IMG/VR virus record: IMGVR_UViG_3300045988_070243
Strand: one strand, 5' to 3'
Source: a virus
Length of the DNA: 33,290 nt
Positions 1,390 through 33,290 of this stretch are shown here, piece by piece. The notes below the pieces were generated by a model that had not been told where the DNA came from, made no database searches, and worked only from the letters and a program-made list of their open reading frames with translations. The position numbers and the translations under genes were made by a program. Within the stretch, counting starts at the first letter, position 1. Each line of letters opens with the position of its first letter.

Positions 1390-2568
1390 ATGGAAGTACA
1401 AATAGACCACACAAGTAGGGCACATGCCCTGCTTTCCCCGAGCAGCTCGCACCGATGGCTTAACTGCACACCGTCCGCACGGTTGGAAGAACCATATGAG
1501 AGCATGAGTAGCGCGGCAGCAGAAGAAGGGACAGTAGTGCACGAGTTGGCAGAGCACGCGATAGAAAAGTATTTGGCCGGGGAATATCTACCATTATTGG
1601 ACGAATTGCCCGTACCCGACGAAATACGTAACAACAAATACTATAGTTCAGAAATGGAACACTACGTAACAGATTACGTGTGCTATGTGTGCGACATATA
1701 TGAACTGGAGGAAGGCGCCAAAATGAGTATAGAGCGAAAGTTTGACCTAACCGCATACGTACCCGAGTGTTTCGGTAGCTGTGACTGCGACATAGTGGGC
1801 GAGACAGTTCTAAACATCATAGACCTAAAATATGGCAAGGGCGTACAAGTAGATGCAAACGAAAACAGCCAATTGATGATGTACGCTATAGGGGTGCTTA
1901 ACTCCTTAGAGCCATCGCACCGCTCCAAGATTGAAAAGGTACGTATGCACATCGCACAAGTACGGTTAGGCAATTACTCGGTATTCGAGATGTCCGCGCG
2001 TGATTTGATCCACTGGGCGATACATGTGCTGCGTCCCACCGCGGAGAAGGCATGGGCGGGACAAGGGGAAACCAAAGTAGGTAGTCATTGTAAGTTCTGC
2101 AAGTTCAAAGCACAGTGCAGGGCACAGAAAGATGCTTTAGTTAACGAGTTCGAGACCTACGGGGACACCAAGGCATTAACGCTTGACGAGATAGGCGACA
2201 TACTAAGCAAGTCCGATATGTTCACCGACTGGCTTGCCTCGGTCAAGACATTTGCAATGCAAGCCGCCCTACGAGGCGAAAAGGTTAAGGGGTGGAAACT
2301 CGTAGAGGGCAGGTCAGCACGTGTCATAAACGACGAGGAAACAGCCATAGAGCGGCTAAATGCCATCGGGTTATCTACCGAGGACATAACTAACCGCAAA
2401 CTGAAAGGTATTGGAGACCTTGAACGCCTGGTTGGTAAAAAGCCGCTCGCCGCTACGCTTGACGGGCTGATAGTCAAGCCGCAAGGACTACCAACGTTAG
2501 CCCCGGAAAGCGATAAGCGCGAGGAGCTAAGCCCAACTATAGATGACTTCGATGAATTAAATTCATAA
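1390..2568 (+). CDS. PD-(D/E)XK exonuclease, Cas4/RecB-like, phage DUF2800-type
   Basis: N-terminus HALLSPSSSHRWLNCTPSARLE, nuclease core CDCDIVG...IIDLKYGKG (D..DxK), QLMMYA (QxxxY), C-terminal cysteine cluster HCKFCKFKAQC. Sits in the canonical DUF2800-DUF2815-PolA module. Confidence 0.8.
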   Translation: MEVQIDHTSRAHALLSPSSSHRWLNCTPSARLEEPYESMSSAAAEEGTVVHELAEHAIEKYLAGEYLPLLDELPVPDEIRNNKYYSSEMEHYVTDYVCYVCDIYELEEGAKMSIERKFDLTAYVPECFGSCDCDIVGETVLNIIDLKYGKGVQVDANENSQLMMYAIGVLNSLEPSHRSKIEKVRMHIAQVRLGNYSVFEMSARDLIHWAIHVLRPTAEKAWAGQGETKVGSHCKFCKFKAQCRAQKDALVNEFETYGDTKALTLDEIGDILSKSDMFTDWLASVKTFAMQAALRGEKVKGWKLVEGRSARVINDEETAIERLNAIGLSTEDITNRKLKGIGDLERLVGKKPLAATLDGLIVKPQGLPTLAPESDKREELSPTIDDFDELNS

Positions 2569-2573
2569 AAGAA

Positions 2574-2633
2574 GTTAACAAAAGAACCAACTTATCAGAT
2601 AAAGCGTTATATTTGCATTATCAATTTAAAAAC
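2574..2633 (+). promoter_or_regulatory. Early promoter cassette copy 2: GTTAAC - GAACCAAC - TATATTTG (2608..2615) - CAATTTAAAAAC
   Basis: Block-for-block similarity to 355..414 and 13715..13773. Lies 27 nt upstream of ATG 2642. Confidence 0.55.
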
Positions 2634-2641
2634 AAAACGAT

Positions 2642-2950
2642 ATGAAAAGTAACAACGGTATTTTAACGGAGAAAGAGATTCAAGAAAGAACCGAGTTTTG
2701 GAATGAAAAGCAATTCCGTACCTGGAGCAAGAAAGAACTCGAAAGAACCTCTAAAGACATGCAAAATCTTTTGGTAGCTATAAAGGGATTCAGCGCGGAC
2801 GAGATTAAAGCCATCAAAAAGTTAAATAGATATGCCTTTGGAACATGCTACAAAAATGACCCGAAGTTTATCATATGGATGGCAGACCAAAGAGACTTAG
2901 ACTATGCTATTTCAATAGCACCAAAGACTTTTAAAGTTAAACAAGGTTAA
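2642..2950 (+). CDS. Hypothetical early protein (102 aa)
   Basis: ORF directly downstream of promoter cassette 2. No domain recognised. Confidence 0.65.
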   Translation: MKSNNGILTEKEIQERTEFWNEKQFRTWSKKELERTSKDMQNLLVAIKGFSADEIKAIKKLNRYAFGTCYKNDPKFIIWMADQRDLDYAISIAPKTFKVKQG

Positions 2951-3005
2951 CAGAGTAAACAACCTATTGGTTTATTTGTTATCTTCGCATCATCAAATTA
3001 AAAAC
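2946..3005 (+). promoter_or_regulatory. Early promoter cassette copy 3 (variant): GTTAAC - AAACAACCTATTG - TATCTTCG (2980..2987) - CAAATTAAAAAC
   Basis: Shares ACAACCTAT..TATTTG..TATCTTCGCA with the copies at 9598..9673 and 33064..33105. Its -7 box is one mismatch from TAnnTTTG. Confidence 0.4.
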
Positions 3006-3050
3006 GGAACGCCCGAACCGATTAGAGGGCAAAAACAAAAATTGTAGAAT

Positions 3051-3590
3051 ATGAAAGTAATGATTAAGAACGTGAGATTGAGTTATGTTAGATTGTTTGA
3101 AGCGCAACAAGTCAACGGACAAGGAGAAGCAAGTTACAGTGTATGTTTATTGATTCCGAAGGATAGCCCGGAAGTCCCAAAGATTAAGGAAGCTATAGAA
3201 CAAGAATTTAGGGGGCTGAAATCTCGTTACCCGAAACTGAACGGCAAAGACCCGAAGGTATGGACTAACCCGTTAAGAGATGGGGATGCCGAGAAAGACG
3301 GTGCAGAATATCAAGGGTGCTACTTTATCAACGCAAAGCGTAAAGAGAAGCAAGGCGCACCTATCGTAATCGACGGTAAGAAACAGTACATAACAGACCA
3401 GAACGAAGTTTATAGCGGTTCTTGGGGCAACGTAGCCGTATCATTTTACCCTTATGAGTTTACCGGGAAATACGGTATCGGTGTAGGTTTGAACGGTGTG
3501 CAGAAGACGAGAGACGACGAAAGACTGGACGGCGGAACAAGCATTGACGATTTCGATTTTGAAGACGAGAACGACGATTTATTCAACTAA
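3051..3590 (+). CDS. Single-stranded DNA-binding protein, DUF2815 / T7 gp2.5-like
   Basis: N-terminus VRLSYVRLFEAQ...ASYSVCLLIPKDSPE is typical of DUF2815. The acidic C-terminal tail ending in an aromatic residue (DDFDFEDENDDLFN) is the hallmark of gp2.5-type SSBs. Position next to the exonuclease and polymerase fits. Confidence 0.8.
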   Translation: MKVMIKNVRLSYVRLFEAQQVNGQGEASYSVCLLIPKDSPEVPKIKEAIEQEFRGLKSRYPKLNGKDPKVWTNPLRDGDAEKDGAEYQGCYFINAKRKEKQGAPIVIDGKKQYITDQNEVYSGSWGNVAVSFYPYEFTGKYGIGVGLNGVQKTRDDERLDGGTSIDDFDFEDENDDLFN

Positions 3591-4871: not shown

Positions 4872-5057
4872 ATGAAAGTTACAACGAAGTATTTTATAGA
4901 CTATGTGTATGACCAACCGAGTGGAGCTAATTATTATCACACATTAGTGAGAACCCGAGACAATGCGATATTGTTTAGCAACCCTAATTTGCAATTGGCT
5001 ATTGATTACGTGAAAGAGATTCAAGGCATTAACTCAAAAGACTTATGCATATTATGA
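4872..5057 (+). CDS. Hypothetical protein (61 aa)
   Basis: ORF downstream of the TACCTTTG box. Its TGA overlaps an in-frame ATG of the polymerase ORF (ATGA at 5054..5057). Confidence 0.5.
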   Translation: MKVTTKYFIDYVYDQPSGANYYHTLVRTRDNAILFSNPNLQLAIDYVKEIQGINSKDLCIL

Positions 5058-7072
5058 AGCATCTTTTTATAGACTTTGAAACGTATTCCGAAACGGACAT
5101 TAAAAGCGCTGGTAACTATAAATACTGTGAGGACGAGAATTTCGAAATTCTCCTTTGTGGTTACATGTGGGACACCGACACGGACGTTTCAATTATCGAC
5201 CTAACAAAGCCCGGAGGACTGGACGAGTTCAACGAGTTGTTCACGTATGTAAAGAACAACGAGGACGTTGTAGTAGTAGCACACAACGCTACATTTGAGC
5301 GTATCTGTTTGCGCGAGTACGGGTTTGACATCAGCCCTATGCGTTTTTTCTGCACAGCTAACATGTCGTTATATTGCGGTATGCCCGCATCACTGGAGGC
5401 GGTATCTAACATTCTGAACCTGGACGATAAGAAGAAGGGCACGGGAAAAAACCTCATCCGTTACTTTTCTATCCCTTGCAAACCCACCAAAACAAACGGC
5501 GGACGTACCCGTAACCTTCCCGAGCACGACCCGAAAGCCTGGGAGGAGTTCAAAGAATATCTGCGTTATGACGTGCTTTCTGAAAAGGAAATATTCGGTA
5601 AGTTGTCCCGGTTTGAATTCCCGGAAGAAGAACAACGCATCTATGCAGCAGACCAGCGTATAAACGACTACGGCATATTGGCAGACCTCGAGCTGGCGCA
5701 CGCCGCGCAAGATATGGACGAAGAATATAAAGCGCGTCTTACTGAAAAAGCCGAAAAGGAATTCGGGTTAAGTTCTCTAAAGTCCATGCCACAGCTAAAG
5801 AACTTCATTAAAGAGCGTACAGGCGTGGTTATTGATTCTCTCAATAAGAATAGTATCGAAGAGGTTATAAAGACCGTAGCGAGCCTTAAAAACGTTACTG
5901 AAGAGGATAAGCAAGCAGTGTTAGGCGTTATAGACTTGCGTAGGGAGATAGGTAAAACGTCGAACGCCAAGTACACCGCCATACTCGCAAGCGCCGGGAG
6001 GGGCAACCGTATCAGAGGTTTGTTCCGTTATTACGGGGCGAACCGTACCGGGAGATGGGCCGGGCGCCTGGTCCAATTACAGAACCTACCGCAGAACCAT
6101 ATCGAGGACTTGGACGGGGCACGAGACCTCGCAAAGCTGCACGATTTGGATATGATGGAAGTTATATACGACAAGCCTACACATATACTTTCGCAGCTTA
6201 TACGTACCGCGTTTATCGCCCCCGAGGGGTACACGTTCGCTGTAGCTGACTTCTCGGCGATTGAAGCCCGAGTAATTGCATGGGTTGCAAACGAGCAATG
6301 GCGTTTAGACTTATTTAACGACCCGAAAGCAGATATTTATTGCGCCTCGGCATCTAAAATGTTTGGTGTCCCAGTACACAAGGGAGACGATTTAAGACAG
6401 CGCGGTAAGGTAGCGGAGCTTGCACTCGGATATGGCGGCGGCGTTAATGCCCTTACCACAATGGATATTAAAAAAGCATTAACAGATGAAGAAAAACCTC
6501 AAATATTGTCAAAATGGAGAGAAGCTAATAAGAAAATAGTATCTTTGTGGCGTTCGCTTGAGGATTGCGCCAAAAGATGTATCGGAACGAGACGCGAACA
6601 AGTTTATAGGGTAGACGATGTTTCGAGTATTATTTTTCGATATGAGAGCGGCGCAATGACTATCGAACTACCGAGCGGTAGAAAGCTATTTTATCCGTCG
6701 GCAAGAATGGGGAGGCGCACCATAGAAGGCGTTAACGGCTCGTTTGAAGTTGAAAATATATCCTACATGGGTCAAGACCAAACTTCCGGGAAATGGGTTA
6801 AACTAAACACCTACGGAGGCAAGTTAACCGAGAACGTTGTACAAGCAATAGCCCGTGACTTGCTGGCAAATGCGATTTTTGAGGTATTCGATTTAGGTTT
6901 TAATATCGTGCTGCATGTGCACGATGAAATAGCCGCCGAGATTCCGAAAGACGGGAACGAAGAAAAGACGCTGCAAATAATGAGCGATGCCATGTGCAGT
7001 GCCCCGAGTTGGGCAAAGGGCATACCATTAAGGGCAGCAGGTTATATTACTGAATATTACAAAAAAGATTAA
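5045..7072 (+). CDS. Family A DNA polymerase with 3'-5' exonuclease domain
   Basis: Exo motifs LFIDFETYS (DxE) and VAHNATFE. Pol motif A VADFSAIEARV, motif B RQRGKVAELALGYGGG, motif C LHVHDEI. The start may instead be ATG 5054 (ATGA overlap with the upstream stop). Confidence 0.9.
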   Translation: MHIMKHLFIDFETYSETDIKSAGNYKYCEDENFEILLCGYMWDTDTDVSIIDLTKPGGLDEFNELFTYVKNNEDVVVVAHNATFERICLREYGFDISPMRFFCTANMSLYCGMPASLEAVSNILNLDDKKKGTGKNLIRYFSIPCKPTKTNGGRTRNLPEHDPKAWEEFKEYLRYDVLSEKEIFGKLSRFEFPEEEQRIYAADQRINDYGILADLELAHAAQDMDEEYKARLTEKAEKEFGLSSLKSMPQLKNFIKERTGVVIDSLNKNSIEEVIKTVASLKNVTEEDKQAVLGVIDLRREIGKTSNAKYTAILASAGRGNRIRGLFRYYGANRTGRWAGRLVQLQNLPQNHIEDLDGARDLAKLHDLDMMEVIYDKPTHILSQLIRTAFIAPEGYTFAVADFSAIEARVIAWVANEQWRLDLFNDPKADIYCASASKMFGVPVHKGDDLRQRGKVAELALGYGGGVNALTTMDIKKALTDEEKPQILSKWREANKKIVSLWRSLEDCAKRCIGTRREQVYRVDDVSSIIFRYESGAMTIELPSGRKLFYPSARMGRRTIEGVNGSFEVENISYMGQDQTSGKWVKLNTYGGKLTENVVQAIARDLLANAIFEVFDLGFNIVLHVHDEIAAEIPKDGNEEKTLQIMSDAMCSAPSWAKGIPLRAAGYITEYYKKD

Positions 7073-9512: not shown

Positions 9513-9597
9513 TGATAACAGAGAGGGGGTGTAAAAGCCCCCAAATGTTAACCAACTGTTAACAGAATAACTAAATGAAATTTATTTCTTAAATGGC

Positions 9598-9673
9598 GTT
9601 AACAGAATATACAACCTATCGTTATTTGCCGTATGTTTGTAATGTCAAAAGGAAATAATAACAATTTAAAAAC
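9598..9673 (+). promoter_or_regulatory. Early promoter cassette copy 4 (variant): GTTAACAGAATA - ACAACCTATCG - TATGTTTG (9632..9639) - AATGTCAAAAGGAAA - CAATTTAAAAAC
   Basis: About 55 nt closely similar to 33064..33110. Exact TAnnTTTG box. GTTAACAGAATA also occurs at 9558..9569. Confidence 0.5.
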
Positions 9674-9675
9674 AA

Positions 9676-10092
9676 ATGATTATGAAAAAGTTAGTAGTAT
9701 TAGCAGTGTTAATTCTTACAAGTGTATCAATGTTTTCACAGATTACAAGTCAAGGTAAGCCCTATGTATTAAAGTCCTTCCGCATGGGCGTTTGCAAATT
9801 GGTTGATACCAATGGGGAAATAACCATCGAGGCGATAACGCGCGAGACCGAAAGGTATATTATGAAAGTCTATTTAGGTACACCCGAGGAAGCCGCCGTA
9901 ACGCTTGCAAGCCTTGCAGAATACAAGCCCGGTAAGGGCGAGACGGTCAACCTAAACAACCCGAGCAACAACGAAGCGTATTTCCAAAAGCTTACTGGCT
10001 CCTGGATAATCACGGAGAAGTTAACGGAGGTTTTCAGTATCGCCCTGAGCCGTGGGGAGCTTAGGAAAATGGTCGAAGCATTGGAAAATTAA
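9676..10092 (+). CDS. Secreted/exported hypothetical protein (N-terminal signal peptide)
   Basis: MIMKKLVVLAVLILTSVSMFSQ has a basic n-region, a hydrophobic core and a small-residue cleavage region. There is no lipobox Cys. Confidence 0.65.
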   Translation: MIMKKLVVLAVLILTSVSMFSQITSQGKPYVLKSFRMGVCKLVDTNGEITIEAITRETERYIMKVYLGTPEEAAVTLASLAEYKPGKGETVNLNNPSNNEAYFQKLTGSWIITEKLTEVFSIALSRGELRKMVEALEN

Positions 10093-10131
10093 AGAAGTGT
10101 TTTTGTATATACAATTTTAAAAAGAAAAATT

Positions 10132-10332
10132 ATGAAAAGTGGAAATTTTATTGAACTAGCGTTCGTAGTTAAGGGTGAATTGCAAGTAGAGTTTATTAAC
10201 GTTGAACACGTATCGCGCATTATGTACGTAGATGGCAAACCGTTTATCGGTATGCTGGGGCAGACCTACACGCGCCAACTTACAGAAACGAGCATGCAGG
10301 AGCTAATGAACGTTATTAACCTGGAGGACTAA
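10132..10332 (+). CDS. Hypothetical small acidic protein (66 aa)
   Basis: ORF preceded by ACAATTTTAAAAAG leader motif 8 nt upstream of the ATG. Confidence 0.55.
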   Translation: MKSGNFIELAFVVKGELQVEFINVEHVSRIMYVDGKPFIGMLGQTYTRQLTETSMQELMNVINLED

Positions 10333-11416: not shown

Positions 11417-11735
11417 AAAAGATTTAGAGCGTACATTCTCCGAGAAGCTTAACCGAACAAAAAAAGTGTGGGTAATAAAACTATTATCCACCTTTATAAA
11501 AGGTTTGCCGGATAGAATGATACTTTGCCAGGGCGGGTATGTAGGCTTCGCCGAGATAAAGACCACGGGTAAGAAACCAACCAAGATACAACTACTGATA
11601 CACAGCAAGTTGGAGGCTTTAGGCTTCAAAGTATTTATTATCGACGACTTGGAAAGCAGGGACGCAGCAATAAGTTTCTTCTTAAGAAATGTTAAGGAAA
11701 TAAACAGCGTACCGGGAAAAGGGTTATCCTTGTAG
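11397..11735 (+). CDS. VRR-NUC domain nuclease (PD-(D/E)XK)
   Basis: GLPDRMILCQGGYVGFAEIKTTGKKPTKIQ gives the D...E-x-K...Q arrangement of VRR-NUC. Small size and position next to the SNF2 helicase are typical of this replication module. Confidence 0.7.
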   Translation: MKEIISEKDLERTFSEKLNRTKKVWVIKLLSTFIKGLPDRMILCQGGYVGFAEIKTTGKKPTKIQLLIHSKLEALGFKVFIIDDLESRDAAISFFLRNVKEINSVPGKGLSL

Positions 11736-11758
11736 CATCAAATTAAAAAACAGAAATC

Positions 11759-12001
11759 GTGAAAAAGAGAAGTTTAAAAGAAGAAATCGAATACCGTTTA
11801 GGTATGTACTTTGGTATTAAGTCGGGCGCGCTGTATGTCCGTGATGATAAGTTCGGTAACACCGAGGAAATTCTAAAGCAGCTCCAGCAGGATATTACCC
11901 GTGATGTTAATTTCCTCTCGCGTAAAACACTGGGGTACGTATCGGATGAGCAGGATTTCAAAAGCATTTGTGTATTCTATAAAACAAAATTAATGGAGTA
12001 A
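11759..12001 (+). CDS. Hypothetical protein (80 aa, GTG start)
   Basis: GTG lies 9 nt after the CAAATTAAAAAACAG leader motif. Ends at TAATAA. Confidence 0.5.
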   Translation: MKKRSLKEEIEYRLGMYFGIKSGALYVRDDKFGNTEEILKQLQQDITRDVNFLSRKTLGYVSDEQDFKSICVFYKTKLME

Positions 12002-13567: not shown

Positions 13568-13719
13568 AAAAGTTAATAGCAGTTATCGCAGTCCTACTCT
13601 TGCTGGTAGGCTGCACCGTAGTACAGAACGTGGCGGACAGCATACAGCGTAATTTCAAGCTACAGCAATTAGAGTACGGGCTATCGCTGAAAGATAGTTT
13701 AATGCTTAAATGGTGTTAA
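13564..13719 (+). CDS. Small lipoprotein (51 aa, below the ORF-track cutoff)
   Basis: MKKLIAVIAVLLLLVGC has a signal sequence plus lipobox L-V-G-C. ATGA overlap with the SNF2 stop. Ends at TAA 13717..13719 inside the GTTAAC of promoter cassette 5. Confidence 0.55.
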   Translation: MKKLIAVIAVLLLLVGCTVVQNVADSIQRNFKLQQLEYGLSLKDSLMLKWC

Positions 13720-13773
13720 CGAAAGAACCAACGTAACGGGAAAGCGTTACATTTGTATCAACGATTTAAAAAC
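13715..13773 (+). promoter_or_regulatory. Early promoter cassette copy 5: GTTAAC - GAACCAAC - TACATTTG (13748..13755) - CGATTTAAAAAC
   Basis: Block-for-block similar to copies 1 and 2. Lies 27 nt upstream of ATG 13782. Confidence 0.55.
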
Positions 13774-13781
13774 AGAAGATT

Positions 13782-14204
13782 ATGATTAGAAACAAAGATT
13801 TTGCGATGCTGTACGCAGGGCGTGGGGTATTCAGCAAGAACGGTGAGTTTGCAGGTGTGGTAGTCGGTTGGAACGACATGCACGGTGTGATAATGGGGGT
13901 TGACCACACGGACGGATGGCAGAACTGGGGCGCCAACGATATAGGCGTGTCCGAGGATGAGTTTCTGTCGTACGAATACCGCAACGCCGGGATGCTGGAG
14001 GAGCCGACCGGGATGCCGGTAGAGGAAGCCCCGAAGCATAAGACGATAGGCGAGCTTATCGAGGAGCACGAAGGCGTGCAAGGTATCCAATTCTCTACGG
14101 ACGAGCACGGCAATGTACAGGCCGCCTATATCCGGGGCAAGCACGGAGGTATGAAGCTCATGAGCATGGGAGACGGTTTGGAGAATGTATCATCAAAAAT
14201 TTAA
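13782..14204 (+). CDS. Hypothetical protein (140 aa)
   Basis: ORF directly downstream of promoter cassette 5. No domain recognised. Confidence 0.65.
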   Translation: MIRNKDFAMLYAGRGVFSKNGEFAGVVVGWNDMHGVIMGVDHTDGWQNWGANDIGVSEDEFLSYEYRNAGMLEEPTGMPVEEAPKHKTIGELIEEHEGVQGIQFSTDEHGNVQAAYIRGKHGGMKLMSMGDGLENVSSKI

Positions 14205-15189: not shown

Positions 15190-15395
15190 CACAGCTGCAC
15201 AGTAAAAAATCGCTACTGTGCAGGTCTCTGTGCAGTCTAACTCCTTATATTATAATATGTTATATGTAAATACACAGATGCACAGTAAAAAGGGGGTAAA
15301 ACATTATTTTGGAGAAAAGTGTATTTTAGGGGGTATAAAATATACTATATTCTATATTAAAGTTTAGAAAAAAAGGTGCGTGTCTGTGCAGGTGC
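15190..15395 (+). repeat. Noncoding junction element, copy A (related to 32751..32970): five CTGTGCAG/CTGCACAG 8-mers plus an AT-rich core
   Basis: Blocks shared with copy B: 15216..15257, 15260..15271, 15281..15318 (38 nt perfect), 15352..15370 (19 nt perfect), 15374..15391. 8-mers at 15195, 15216, 15228, 15278 (ATGCACAG) and 15384. Confidence 0.9.
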
Positions 15396-15660: not shown

Positions 15661-16287
15661 ATGGCAGGGAGAGCAAAGAAGGGAGCCGCCCCCGATACGA
15701 AGGCGGCAATTACCAAGGGACAAGCGACGGGCAAAGCCCCGGCCCCTAAAACAGATTTGGAGAAATGCAAGGAGCTTTATGAGGTCGTGCAGACGCGCGG
15801 TTGCAAAGGTGCTACGTTGTCTACCGTAGAGGAGTGCATAGATTACGTAGCCGAGTACATGAACTTTTGCGTGAAGAACCCCTTCATCACGTATGAAGTC
15901 CTAAAGGGTGGGAACGCAGCCGGGCAAAAAGTACCCATAGAAAAGAAACGCGCGCCATCGCTTGGCGGCTTCTGCCTTTTTATCGGGTGGACTCTGCAAG
16001 CGTTCAAGAAGAACGGCGCACGACTTGAAAAGCTGGCGGACGACGGGAACGAAGAAGCGGCCAACTTATTGACCGGGTACGCCCTTATCGCCGAACTCAT
16101 AGCAACCGATATGGACGAAAGCGCGCTTGCCGGTGTGGTTGATGCTAACTACATGGCAAAGCTTAGAGGACTACGAGACCTTAAAGACGTTACGAGCAAT
16201 GGCAAGGAAGCCGGCACAAAGGCTATGCAGGTTAACGTACTCTCCGAGGACGCAGTGAAGAACCTACAAAAGTTAGGGGGAATTTAA
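15661..16287 (+). CDS. terS: Terminase small subunit
   Basis: Basic N-terminus. The segment KRAPSLGGFCLFIGWTLQAFKKN resembles the HTH region conserved in small terminases (P-t-l-eGl-a-flGis..t). First gene of the late block, upstream of terL. Confidence 0.65.
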   Translation: MAGRAKKGAAPDTKAAITKGQATGKAPAPKTDLEKCKELYEVVQTRGCKGATLSTVEECIDYVAEYMNFCVKNPFITYEVLKGGNAAGQKVPIEKKRAPSLGGFCLFIGWTLQAFKKNGARLEKLADDGNEEAANLLTGYALIAELIATDMDESALAGVVDANYMAKLRGLRDLKDVTSNGKEAGTKAMQVNVLSEDAVKNLQKLGGI

Positions 16288-16295
16288 TAATTTAG

Positions 16296-16565
16296 CTAAA
16301 AACAGTTTTTACGGCAAGGACTTATTCGGCGGTAGTAACCGCAACGGGCGATAGTATCGCCTTTCAAATTGAGGTATCGAACATTGGTACGATTGTACTT
16401 GAACGCTCCATTAACGGCAAAAAGTGGGTGGTAGACCGCAAGATAAGCGATATGTTCGTGTTTAGTAATGTAGCCGAGTTTAATGTTGCCGGCACAGTAG
16501 TAGGTCAACAGTTACGCGTATCGTACGACAACTGCACCGAGGTATCATTTGAAACGCTCCAGTAG
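16296..16565 (+). pseudogene. Start-less 90-codon open frame with beta-rich, protein-like sequence, in frame with the downstream LamG-like gene across a single TAG
   Basis: Open from TAG 16293..16295 to TAG 16563..16565. The first canonical in-frame starts are GTG 16428 and ATG 16452. Translation: ...TYSAVVTATGDSIAFQIEVSNIGTIVLERSINGKKWVVDRKISDMFVFSNVAEFNVAGTVVGQQLRVSYDNCTEVSFETLQ*. Confidence 0.45.
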
Positions 16566-16568
16566 CCT

Positions 16569-17234
16569 ATGAGAGGATTTGATATCAAGCAAATACCCAT
16601 GCGGCCGTTCCAAATATCGGGACTGACCGCTAAATGGGGTATCGGCGGTAGTCGCAAGCCCTCTATATGGGATGCCAACTTAATAGGCAGGTGGGATGCA
16701 CGTACATTCCCGGACGGCGAATTAGCCACGATACCCAATACCGCTACAATGGAAGGTAAATCCCCCGACATTACCGTAGAGGGCGCAACGATGAAAAAGG
16801 GTACATTACAGTTCGACGGTGTGGACGATGGGGCACGTACAAGCAGGTTCTTGTTTCCCGAAAGGTTCACCGTCTTTTGGGATATAGATTGGCTGGGTAC
16901 GATAGACACTAGTGCTGGAGTAATTCACGGGACGAACCTCATTATGTACAATCTCAAAGCCACTGAATCCTTGCTCACCTATATTCGGAGTGCTCCAGGA
17001 AAAATACCTAACACCCGCGTAGGAGTATCAACGAACGGCAAGGTGTACGCCAAAGACGGTAGTGTTACTCCGTTTGGCGGCACAGTAGGTACGGGTGCTA
17101 AAGCAGACGAATTATATATTGCACAGAGAAACACAGCGTTTACCCAAATGGGCTTCCGCCAGCTACTAATATTCAACAAGGAGCTTTCACAAGACGAGGT
17201 TAACGACGTGTTACGCGCCATGTTCCCGGCTTAA
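16569..17234 (+). CDS. LamG-like (concanavalin A-like lectin/glucanase fold) domain protein
   Basis: GTLQFDGVDDGARTS...FTVFWDIDW, NGKVYAKDG and the C-terminal LYIAQRNTAFTQMGFRQLLIFNKELSQDEVNDV match the Laminin_G_3 pattern (FDG.dd, ftvsaW, lyvnG, f.G.id.vriynraLs..Ei). Confidence 0.6.
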   Translation: MRGFDIKQIPMRPFQISGLTAKWGIGGSRKPSIWDANLIGRWDARTFPDGELATIPNTATMEGKSPDITVEGATMKKGTLQFDGVDDGARTSRFLFPERFTVFWDIDWLGTIDTSAGVIHGTNLIMYNLKATESLLTYIRSAPGKIPNTRVGVSTNGKVYAKDGSVTPFGGTVGTGAKADELYIAQRNTAFTQMGFRQLLIFNKELSQDEVNDVLRAMFPA

Positions 17235-17269
17235 ACTCTATCAAACATCAATGCCACATCGGTTTTAAC

Positions 17270-17277
17270 TACCTTTG
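17270..17277 (+). promoter_or_regulatory. -7 box TACCTTTG upstream of terL, embedded in an 8-bp inverted repeat (ATGCCACA 17251..17258 / TGTGGCAT 17275..17282)
   Basis: Exact TAnnTTTG 22 nt before ATG 17299. The inverted repeat was read directly from the sequence. Confidence 0.45.
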
Positions 17278-17298
17278 TGGCATTAAACATTTATAAGC

Positions 17299-18444
17299 AT
17301 GAACGTTACATTTACTTTTGAAAAGATACTGGCGGCTTTCGTAGACCCGAAGATACGCGGAGTAGCCTCTAAAGGCGGTACACGTAGCGGCAAGACATGG
17401 GCAACCCTACAGATGTTACACATACTTGCATTGAACAACCCGCAACCGCTCGTTATCTCGTGCGTAGCGGCTACGTTCCCTATGGTGAAACGCGGTATGC
17501 TCCGAGACTTTAAAGCTATGGTGGTAGCCGAGGGCTACTGGGACGAGAACAAGTTTAATAAAACGGAAAGTACATACGAATACCCGAACGGCACGATAAT
17601 AGAGTTCTTCTCGTGTGATAACGCCGGGAAGGTGCACGGCCCTGCACGTGATATTCTGTTCGTCAACGAGGCCCAGGGCATACCCCGGGAAATCTTTAGG
17701 CAGCTTGATATCAGAACAAGGAAGAAAGTTATTATAGACTATAACCCCGTGCGTAAGTTCTGGGGCGAAACGGAGTTCGTAGGTGACAGATACGTTACCG
17801 TACATTCAACGTACAAGGATAACCCGTACTTGACCCCCGAACAAGTGGCAGCCATCGAGAAGAACAAGAACGATGCTAACTGGTGGCGCGTGTACGGTGA
17901 GGGCTTGACGGGCGGCGTAGAGGGTAACGTTTACCCCGAATATGAGGTTATTGACGATATGCCCGAGACGTTTACGGGCAGGTGCCTGGGGCTTGACTTT
18001 GGTTTCGTGAATGACCCTACCGCGATAGTCGATATACGCATGGAGGGCTGGGATTTGTTCGTGGACTTGCTTTGCTATGAACAAGGCTTGCTAAATAGCC
18101 ATATAGCGGACTACTTGAACGCTAATGCACTGAACCGCGTTGTAACGGTGTGTGACAGTGCGGAGCAAAAGAGCATCGTGGAGCTACAGCAGAAGCATAT
18201 CAAAGCGATACCGTGTGTCAAGGGACGCGGCTCTGTGGCGGCTGGTATTGCACAGGTCAAGCAGTTCAAGTTGCACGTAACAAAGCGTTCGGTCAAGCTG
18301 CTTGACGAGTTGGATAACTACAAATGGATTAAGGACGAGGTATCGGACACATACACCAACGAAGCCATAGACGCGTGGAACCACGCACTCGACGCTCTCC
18401 GTTACGGTGTGGACTTCTTGATACGTAAATACAGACCCAAATAA
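17299..18444 (+). CDS. terL: Terminase large subunit (compact PBSX/Terminase_3-like)
   Basis: Walker A SKGGTRSGKTWA, Walker B-like DILFVNEAQ. Nuclease-domain acidic motifs GLDFGFVNDPTAIV, VCDSAEQKSI, HALDALRYG. Confidence 0.85.
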   Translation: MNVTFTFEKILAAFVDPKIRGVASKGGTRSGKTWATLQMLHILALNNPQPLVISCVAATFPMVKRGMLRDFKAMVVAEGYWDENKFNKTESTYEYPNGTIIEFFSCDNAGKVHGPARDILFVNEAQGIPREIFRQLDIRTRKKVIIDYNPVRKFWGETEFVGDRYVTVHSTYKDNPYLTPEQVAAIEKNKNDANWWRVYGEGLTGGVEGNVYPEYEVIDDMPETFTGRCLGLDFGFVNDPTAIVDIRMEGWDLFVDLLCYEQGLLNSHIADYLNANALNRVVTVCDSAEQKSIVELQQKHIKAIPCVKGRGSVAAGIAQVKQFKLHVTKRSVKLLDELDNYKWIKDEVSDTYTNEAIDAWNHALDALRYGVDFLIRKYRPK

Positions 18445-32750: not shown

Positions 32751-32970
32751 CACAGTCTGCACAGTAGAAAAGTAGGTCTGTGCAGGTCTCTTGTGCAGTC
32801 TAACTCCTTATATTATAATACATTATATGTAAATGCACAGTAAACACAGTAAAAAGGGGGTAAAACATTATTTTGGAGAAAATACCATTTACCACTATAG
32901 AACGAGCTGTAAAAACCGCTATATCCTATATTAAAGTTTAGAAATTTAGGTGCGTTTCTGTGCTGTGCAG
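32751..32970 (+). repeat. Noncoding junction element, copy B (related to 15190..15395)
   Basis: Blocks shared with copy A: 32778..32820, 32823..32834, 32845..32882 (38 nt perfect), 32926..32944 (19 nt perfect), 32948..32970. 8-mers at 32757, 32778, 32791 (TTGTGCAG), 32833 (ATGCACAG) and 32963. Confidence 0.9.
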
Positions 32971-33191: not shown

Positions 33192-33290
33192 GTTTTTTTT
33201 AAAAGAAAAGAGGTCACCAAGACATTAAACTGGAGATAACCGTGAACAAGTAAGAACGTAGATTTGTATTAACGTATAAAACGAAGCGAA
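33192..33290. repeat. Terminal direct repeat, right copy (identical to 1..99)
   Basis: Same 99-nt string as 1..99. The window ends exactly where the identity ends, as expected for an assembler overlap or terminal redundancy. Confidence 0.95.

Follow-up and report, generated by a model that had tools for sequence, protein, structure and literature searches.

Between the small terminase gene (terS) of a phage genome and the next gene that begins with ATG lie 281 nt (16288-16568) with an open reading frame that lacks a canonical start codon and that is separated from the downstream gene by one TAG in the same frame. This arrangement raises the question of whether the frame is an N-terminal extension of the downstream gene, reached by read-through of the TAG, or a gene of its own whose start has been lost. 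In the latter case, it also has to be asked whether the gene is switched off, turned down or still used, and whether the same change is found in other phages.

Results

Layout of the locus

The stretch of DNA that we analysed, referred to here as the window, is 33,290 nt long. It is a complete phage genome in a circular assembly (33,191 bp) with a 99-nt terminal overlap, seen as an exact direct repeat at both window ends (1-99 and 33192-33290), and all genes are on the + strand. The terS gene ends with the TAATAA at 16285-16290. In the frame of 16296, 89 sense codons are open to 16562 between two flanking stops, TAG at 16293-16295 and TAG at 16563-16565, and no ATG, GTG or TTG is present from the first of these stops up to GTG 16428, which together with ATG 16452 provides the earliest canonical starts in this frame. 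The second TAG, the CCT that follows it and the ATG at 16569 all belong to one frame. The start-less open frame of 16296-16562, with its TAG one codon before the next ATG, is therefore as described in the original prediction, and the translation is identical. The features of the locus are as follows.

15661..16287, + strand: terS, small terminase, 208 aa (PHROG 606 terminase small subunit, E 9e-11; labelled terS in EMB2 and BU3-1)
16293..16295, + strand: in-frame TAG upstream of the open frame (TAA in relatives), shutting off extension upstream and frameshift entry from terS
16311..16565, + strand: ortholog of a conserved 84-codon gene, frame intact, TAG stop at 16563-16565, predicted small beta-sandwich (EMB2_00028 / BV283P2_00014 family)
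16311..16313, + strand: ACG where orthologs have the ATG start (T->C at 16312), from DNA alignments and the locus survey and the same in three further assemblies
16563..16565, + strand: native stop of the 84-codon gene, TAG here and TAG or TAA in all relatives (alignments, locus survey)
16569..17234, + strand: LamG-like gene, 221 aa, intact with its own ATG; tentative concanavalin-A-like/LamG-like lectin fold (homologs, BU3-1 annotation, weak Foldseek matches)
17299..18444, + strand: terL, large terminase, 381 aa, downstream boundary of the cassette (Pfam Terminase_3C 4e-20, Terminase_3 2e-10)
16288..17298, + strand: two-gene accessory cassette (84-codon gene and LamG-like gene) between terS and terL, missing from close relatives

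Elsewhere in the window, we noticed several repeated elements. A non-coding segment of ~200 nt is duplicated at 15195-15389 and 32757-32963 with 80-100% identity (repeat families D7, D8, D14 and D19); the first copy precedes terS, the second is close to the end of the genome, and each opens with a CTGCACAG...CTGTGCAG palindrome. These segments may be regulatory or packaging-related sites. Conserved elements of 60-86 nt with the pattern GTTAAC...AACCAAC...GTTATATTTGCAT...CAATTTAAAAA are found upstream of several early genes (338-443, 2557-2662, 2934-3019, 9581-9688, 10091-10152, 11679-11764 and 13698-13802), and their sequence is suggestive of promoters of the Bacteroides type that have an operator in common. 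In addition, 4-5 tandem 24-nt coding repeats (AGCAAAGCCAAAGCCCGAAAATGT) are present at 1009-1128 within the ORF of 731-1384.

Sequence comparison assigns the frame to a conserved 84-codon gene

In distant blastn searches, the Bacteroides uniformis phages EMB1, EMB2 and BU3-1 matched the window at 83-86% identity across the whole region, and Phocaeicola phages matched at about 67-71% identity. The records of EMB2, BV283P2 and BM127P1 each annotate a separate 84-aa CDS (255 nt) between terS and the LamG-like gene. Looking for a proper start in related phages, as the original prediction had proposed, was successful: the orthologs start with ATG, and this ATG aligns exactly over the ACG at 16311-16313 of the window (TTTTTATGGCAAAG in the relatives, TTTTTACGGCAAGG in the window). 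The coding unit proper is 16311-16565 (84 codons plus the stop), and the five codons that precede it in the open frame (16296-16310) correspond to an untranslated leader in the relatives.

A protein homology search returned 169 homologous clusters, nearly all of exactly 84 aa and with up to 92% identity (best family match: E 1e-41, 92% identity, 99% coverage), and tblastn found the gene in 12 isolated phages. The mean column identity of the family is 85% and its pairwise dN/dS is ~0.1. Because of the 169 homologous clusters and this dN/dS, the open frame is more than a chance occurrence, and the suspicion that the stretch is coding is borne out, in that it is genuine coding sequence without a canonical start. 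The gene order terS / 84-aa gene / LamG-like gene is common to EMB2, BV283P2, BM127P1 and about 40 metagenomic loci. Judged from these alignments, Bacteroides/Phocaeicola siphophages have a conserved 84-aa gene that stands by itself, and 16311-16565 is its ortholog in the window. The window carries this ortholog at the DNA level and may not hold an expressed member of the family; a tryptic peptide of the protein would be TYSAVVTATGDSIAFQIEVSNIGTIVLER. Both a lost start and initiation at a non-canonical codon had been considered for this frame. The lesion can now be placed precisely, as ATG->ACG at the orthologous start, while the accompanying idea of a decayed N-terminal domain of the LamG-like protein did not hold.

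Predicted folds of the two proteins

The AlphaFold model of the 84-aa protein is a beta-sandwich of 6-7 strands (pLDDT 76, pTM 0.67). When this model of the frame alone was compared by Foldseek with BFVD, the sole significant match was its own ortholog (E 5e-10), and nothing significant was found in the PDB, where the best match (E 0.04) was among carbohydrate-binding-module-like / jelly-roll folds. A sequence search of the PDB gave no match, no Pfam family was matched, and PHROGs returned only weak matches to families of unknown function. In a profile search of 1.84 billion representatives, we found only 29 clusters, which include distant relatives of 90-98 aa, together with short partial matches inside DUF11/DUF7507 and fn3 repeat proteins. 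The frame had been described as beta-rich and Ig-like; the former agrees with the model, and the latter is plausible as a predicted fold without being established.

For the 221-aa LamG-like protein, the model is of low confidence (pLDDT 57), and its Foldseek matches, with E values of about 1e-3, are lectin domains of trans-sialidases, botulinum toxin Hc and GH43 domain 4. The record of BU3-1 labels the downstream gene as 'LamG domain-containing', in agreement with these weak concanavalin-A-like matches. Neither Pfam nor a sequence search of the PDB gave a match for this protein. A faint Laminin_G_3 match was seen in the deletion chimera P0242.

Absence and decay of the two-gene cassette

In C2_18_80S2P, terS is at 1371-1997 and terL at 2001-3146, so that terL begins 4 nt after terS and the cassette is absent. 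Close relatives of this type have a terS that is about 90% identical at the nucleotide level and no cassette, and in phages H13-H21 only the terS part of the query was matched. Since these close relatives go directly from terS to terL, 16288-17298 represents an insertion or accessory cassette.

Lesions within the 84-codon gene were also observed. The isolate BU3-1 (L002, 2205-2470) has an additional A in the A-run just after the ATG, and the gene is unannotated in its record. Because BU3-1 forms plaques with this frameshift, the 84-aa gene is not needed for plaque formation. L008 (461-715) carries the nonsense change W39* (TGG->TGA), and L009 (2483-2737) has a 19-nt tandem duplication flanked by GGCG microhomology. 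Furthermore, P0242, P0246, P0247, P0249 and the locus L074 are deletion derivatives in which the front of the 84-aa gene is fused to the LamG-like tail; in P0242, P0246 and P0249, the N-terminal 34-66 residues of the 84-aa protein are joined in frame to the LamG-like C-terminal end. As read from these sequences, the cassette decays also by internal deletion.

The ACG allele is real and recurs in the surveyed loci

The ACG at 16311-16313 is real and not an error. The exact LamG-like protein of the window was found on contigs of three other samples (ENA ERZ28582012, JGI 7000000278 (SRS018133) and JGI 3300007705; loci L049, L050 and L051). These three assemblies, which are 99.96-99.98% identical to the window over 2.7-4.7 kb, agree with it at 281 of 281 positions over 16288-16568, ACG included. 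A sequencing or assembly error at 16312, a prior possibility that had been named for this frame, is excluded by this identical region in three assemblies of different samples and by the presence of ACG in four further, different haplotypes, leaving it a negligible chance.

To place the allele among its relatives, loci were collected independently of the start codon by tblastn-confirmed scans of IMG/VR and metagenome contigs, and further contigs were reached via the neighbouring LamG-like protein. A scan of genome contigs yielded no relative, and a scan with 20-mer anchors returned mostly chance matches. The survey comprised 60 loci with 32 distinct 255-nt haplotypes, distributed as follows.

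Intact, ATG start: 22
ACG start, frame otherwise intact: 5
Nonsense (W39*): 1
19-nt duplication: 1
+1A frameshift (BU3-1): 1
C-terminal variant (L047): 1
Deletion remnant (L074): 1

The window's family member thus has ACG in place of the canonical ATG that is found in 22/32 haplotypes. It shares ACG with L005, L045 (identical to L063), L056 and L072, and no other start-codon variant (ATA, ATT, GTG or TTG) was present in the 32 haplotypes. The nearest neighbour of each ACG haplotype is an ATG haplotype and never another ACG one. L045 belongs to a different clade with unrelated upstream sequence; the stretch ...TTTTTAYGGCAARGAC... marks the allele context, and the L045-type context is distinct from it. 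The ACG locus L072 (SRR33526667) and the ATG locus L073 (SRR30025056), which were assembled from separate sequencing runs, are identical except for 2 of 2106 nt, and the T/C of the start codon accounts for one of the two. Given the ATG nearest neighbours, the separate clade of L045 and the near-identity of L072 and L073, at least three origins of ACG are likely, and there were probably five. As these haplotypes show, the ACG allele recurs in nature. Among loci that had been retrieved via the LamG-like protein, terS, the LamG-like gene and terL were called at their full length, and were free of start lesions, wherever the contig covered these genes.

A probable knock-out or strong knock-down by start-codon loss

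We propose, with a probability of about 0.78, that the ACG allele is a recurrent knock-out or strong knock-down of a dispensable small predicted beta-sandwich protein that is encoded in a two-gene accessory cassette. A single T->C at 16312 has turned the ATG start into ACG; the rest of the frame and its native TAG are intact. Shine-Dalgarno-guided initiation is largely lacking in Bacteroidetes. In E. coli, ACG is among the codons that initiate at 0.1-1% of AUG, with the N-terminal Met detected (Hecht et al. preprint, 10.1101/063800), an efficiency that may not transfer to Bacteroides, which is a caveat for the knock-down reading. Because the starts of the window's other main genes are ATG in 34/34 cases and ACG is so inefficient in E. 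coli, the 84-codon gene is most likely off, or very strongly turned down, in the window's strain. The gene would be conditionally dispensable, in that wild populations appear to lose or attenuate it repeatedly via ACG, nonsense, frameshift, duplication, internal deletion and loss of the whole cassette. Among these routes, the one through the start codon seems to be favoured over those that leave truncated products.

We also compared the private changes of the haplotypes. Those with ACG have 7 synonymous and 6 non-synonymous private changes versus 13 and 5 in the intact ATG haplotypes, a difference that is not significant. The private changes of the window include N15S at a residue that is conserved in at least 90% of the family. 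Together, these may be a weak hint, statistically not significant, of relaxed constraint in the ACG haplotypes. A second disabling lesion (stop or frameshift) was found in 0/5 of them.

The intact frames also bear on an alternative in which ACG is a selected weak start, the protein is needed at a much lower dose and ATG<->ACG serves as a reversible one-step expression dial. ACG is placed exactly at the orthologous start with the frame intact in 5/5 ACG haplotypes, it is strongly over-represented in comparison with nonsense and other start-loss codons, and it gives detectable Met-initiated translation in E. coli (10.1101/063800). The dN/dS of ~0.08 between the window and L005 would indicate purifying selection if their ACG is shared by descent. 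It is also conceivable that one ACG allele was passed around by recombination within the B. uniformis-phage clade; it would then be an old allele, and the intactness of its frame would speak for a function that persists. However, viable phages exist with outright null lesions or without the whole cassette, and no dose is apparently required. The ACG alleles are nearest to ATG ones, which makes independent recent origins more parsimonious than long maintenance. Moreover, the window and L056 bear extra private amino-acid changes, and ATG is the start of all 34 other main genes. We consider a selected weak start unlikely.

Excess of ACG over random knock-outs

Under a null model of random point mutations with a transition bias of 1-8, ATG->ACG is expected to make up 3-9% of start/stop-type knock-outs. 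Provided that the five events are independent, P for the observed 5 ACG among 6 start/stop-type events lies between about 1e-7 and 3e-5. For 3 ACG among 4 events, we roughly estimate P at about 1e-3. Given this excess over random knock-outs, something beyond simple decay would therefore favour ACG. Alleles that leave no truncated beta-sandwich fragment may be better tolerated than nonsense alleles, in which case loss of the start codon would be favoured.

Several other candidate causes were considered and rejected. Escape from restriction or from another motif does not fit, as every 4- to 7-mer that includes the T of TATGGC occurs commonly in the genome. For a mutation templated by a quasi-palindrome or by an inverted or direct repeat, the surroundings of the site offer only chance-level 6-7-mers. 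A change in mRNA structure was dismissed since the MFE and the accessibility of the start region are essentially equal for C and T. A general A:T->G:C mutation bias disagrees with the polarised singletons of 13 related loci, which are balanced (94 AT>GC versus 107 GC>AT transitions).

In principle, selection is not needed for the recurrence if the site is a mutational hotspot or if a mutator biased towards A:T->G:C was at work. Since neither A>G nor T>C can create a stop, ATG->ACG is the sole start/stop-type knock-out that such a mutator would produce. A lineage with a spectrum of this kind exists, namely that of L074, in which 61 of 73 lineage-specific substitutions are A:T->G:C (32/32 in the gene remnant), and the phage encodes its own family A DNA polymerase. 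However, the singleton spectrum over the 13 related loci is balanced, and the ACG lineages themselves are without an AT>GC excess. The complete terS, LamG-like gene and terL of the same loci are free of start lesions, and neither a templating quasi-palindrome or repeat nor motif avoidance was found around the site. A mutational cause of the recurrence is thus quite improbable.

The locus L074 (Logan SRR28284362_13920), especially 743-970, is an observation in its own right. Its cassette has shrunk to a 75-codon remnant, and its 73 lineage-specific substitutions comprise, besides the 61 A:T->G:C transitions, only 2 G:C->A:T. The substitution density is 14 per 100 nt in the remnant, where all 32 are AT>GC, versus about 2 in terS/terL. 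Such a pattern, here in a wild phage lineage, resembles the signature of a mutator or of adenine deamination. The family A DNA polymerase of the phage is encoded at 5045-7072 of the window and may bear on this biased mutation spectrum.

The TAG before the LamG-like gene is a native stop in relatives

The original prediction favoured read-through or suppression of the TAG at 16563-16565, which would yield a minor extended isoform of the 84-codon frame and the LamG-like protein. The two frames do coincide in the window's clade with only TAG and CCT between them, and the L044 clade also has an in-frame arrangement, with TAA directly followed by ATG. However, a frame that lacks a start codon offers no translation that could run past the TAG. 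The position of the window's TAG is occupied by TAG or TAA in every relative, with TAA in other clades. In BV283P2, BM127P1 and L046, the stop shares bases with the downstream start (TAATG), which puts the two genes in different frames and makes a fusion impossible there. A continuous ORF with a sense codon in place of the TAG, which was to be sought in relatives, was not found, the stop being kept and the downstream frame varying. What had been taken for a nonsense mutation is the conserved native stop of the 84-aa gene, and what had been taken for an N-terminal domain of the LamG-like gene is an independent 84-aa gene in relatives.

The lengths of the homologs point in the same direction. 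The LamG-like protein has 498 homologs, and the matches listed are all 210-225 aa, as those listed for the 84-aa protein are 84 (86) aa. No homolog of read-through length was found among the matches listed in the 169- and 498-match searches or among the profile-search matches. Chimeras of the two proteins are few, deletion-derived and much shorter than the read-through length (e.g. P0242). A tRNA gene search of the window found none, hence no suppressor tRNA, and TAG is the ordinary stop of 5 other genes, with all 34 main ORFs intact under the standard code. A read-through fusion was consequently rejected on these comparative data and an extended isoform is very improbable; the lack of fused homologs among the matches listed, the lack of a suppressor tRNA and an in-frame relation that is not conserved all weigh against the claim. 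The LamG-like gene is, from its sequence and that of its homologs, a separate protein with its own ATG.

Three further candidates were set aside. TAG recoding or a suppressor tRNA is ruled out by the absence of tRNA genes in the window and by the TAG that ends 5 other genes, and frameshift entry from terS is ruled out by the in-frame stops TAA 16233 and TAG 16293. The region has no repeat partner in the window, which led us to discard a DGR template repeat or any other repeated copy of it.

Discussion

The ACG allele bears on how this region should be annotated. The 281-nt 'gap' is neither intergenic nor a read-through extension, and it is best labelled as the ortholog of a conserved small gene with a mutated start codon. 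Gene callers skip the 84-codon gene or call a spurious 45-aa GTG fragment. The exact sequence of this GTG-initiated fragment (16428-16565 in the window) is present in NCBI nr, where it is a truncated ORF call that is probably meaningless; looking up such 45-aa fragments says little about how common the genotype is.

The cassette between terS and terL is an accessory module that gut Bacteroides phages have repeatedly gained, attenuated and lost. An ATG->ACG allele is in itself ordinary; what is of modest interest is its specific recurrence in wild relatives. Near-isogenic ATG and ACG phages provide a cheap natural experiment on the role of the 84-aa protein and on whether its silencing is adaptive.

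A more far-reaching proposal, which we regard as rather unlikely, is that ATG<->ACG is a selected reversible one-nucleotide switch in wild Bacteroides phages, with ACG as a clean off state or as a ~100- to 1000-fold lower dose. If this were true, the protein would be a small virion-associated or host-interacting beta-sandwich, and ACG would be favoured over nonsense and frameshift alleles for leaving no truncated product and for reverting by a single transition. A possible purpose of such a switch would be to evade a host defence that senses the 84-aa protein.

The closest counterparts of the window's gene are EMB2_00028 (USR81547.1), BV283P2_00014 (WAX10565.1) and BM127P1_00040 (WAX08271.1), hypothetical 84-aa proteins with 77-92% identity over all 84 residues. 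Their genes occupy the same slot between terS and the LamG-like gene and have the same stop position. They start with ATG, whereas the window ortholog has ACG, and these proteins have no Pfam family and no solved structural relative.

With programmed stop read-through and TAG reassignment in gut phages, the locus shares an in-frame TAG between two open frames. It differs from such systems in three respects: relatives do not always keep the two frames in register, the window has no suppressor tRNA, and TAG serves as a standard stop in other genes. Near-cognate initiation as described for ACG in E. coli (10.1101/063800) offers another parallel, since the window's ACG is one base from AUG and lies exactly at the orthologous start. 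Here, however, ACG is a candidate start read from the sequence, all other main genes begin with ATG, and ACG reaches 0.1-1% of AUG in E. coli. Finally, the dispensable cassette that is absent in close relatives and the several independent disabling lesions are reminiscent of start-loss pseudogenes and 'moron'-like accessory genes. In contrast to these, ATG->ACG recurs at this locus far above the random knock-out spectrum, and the frame is intact each time.
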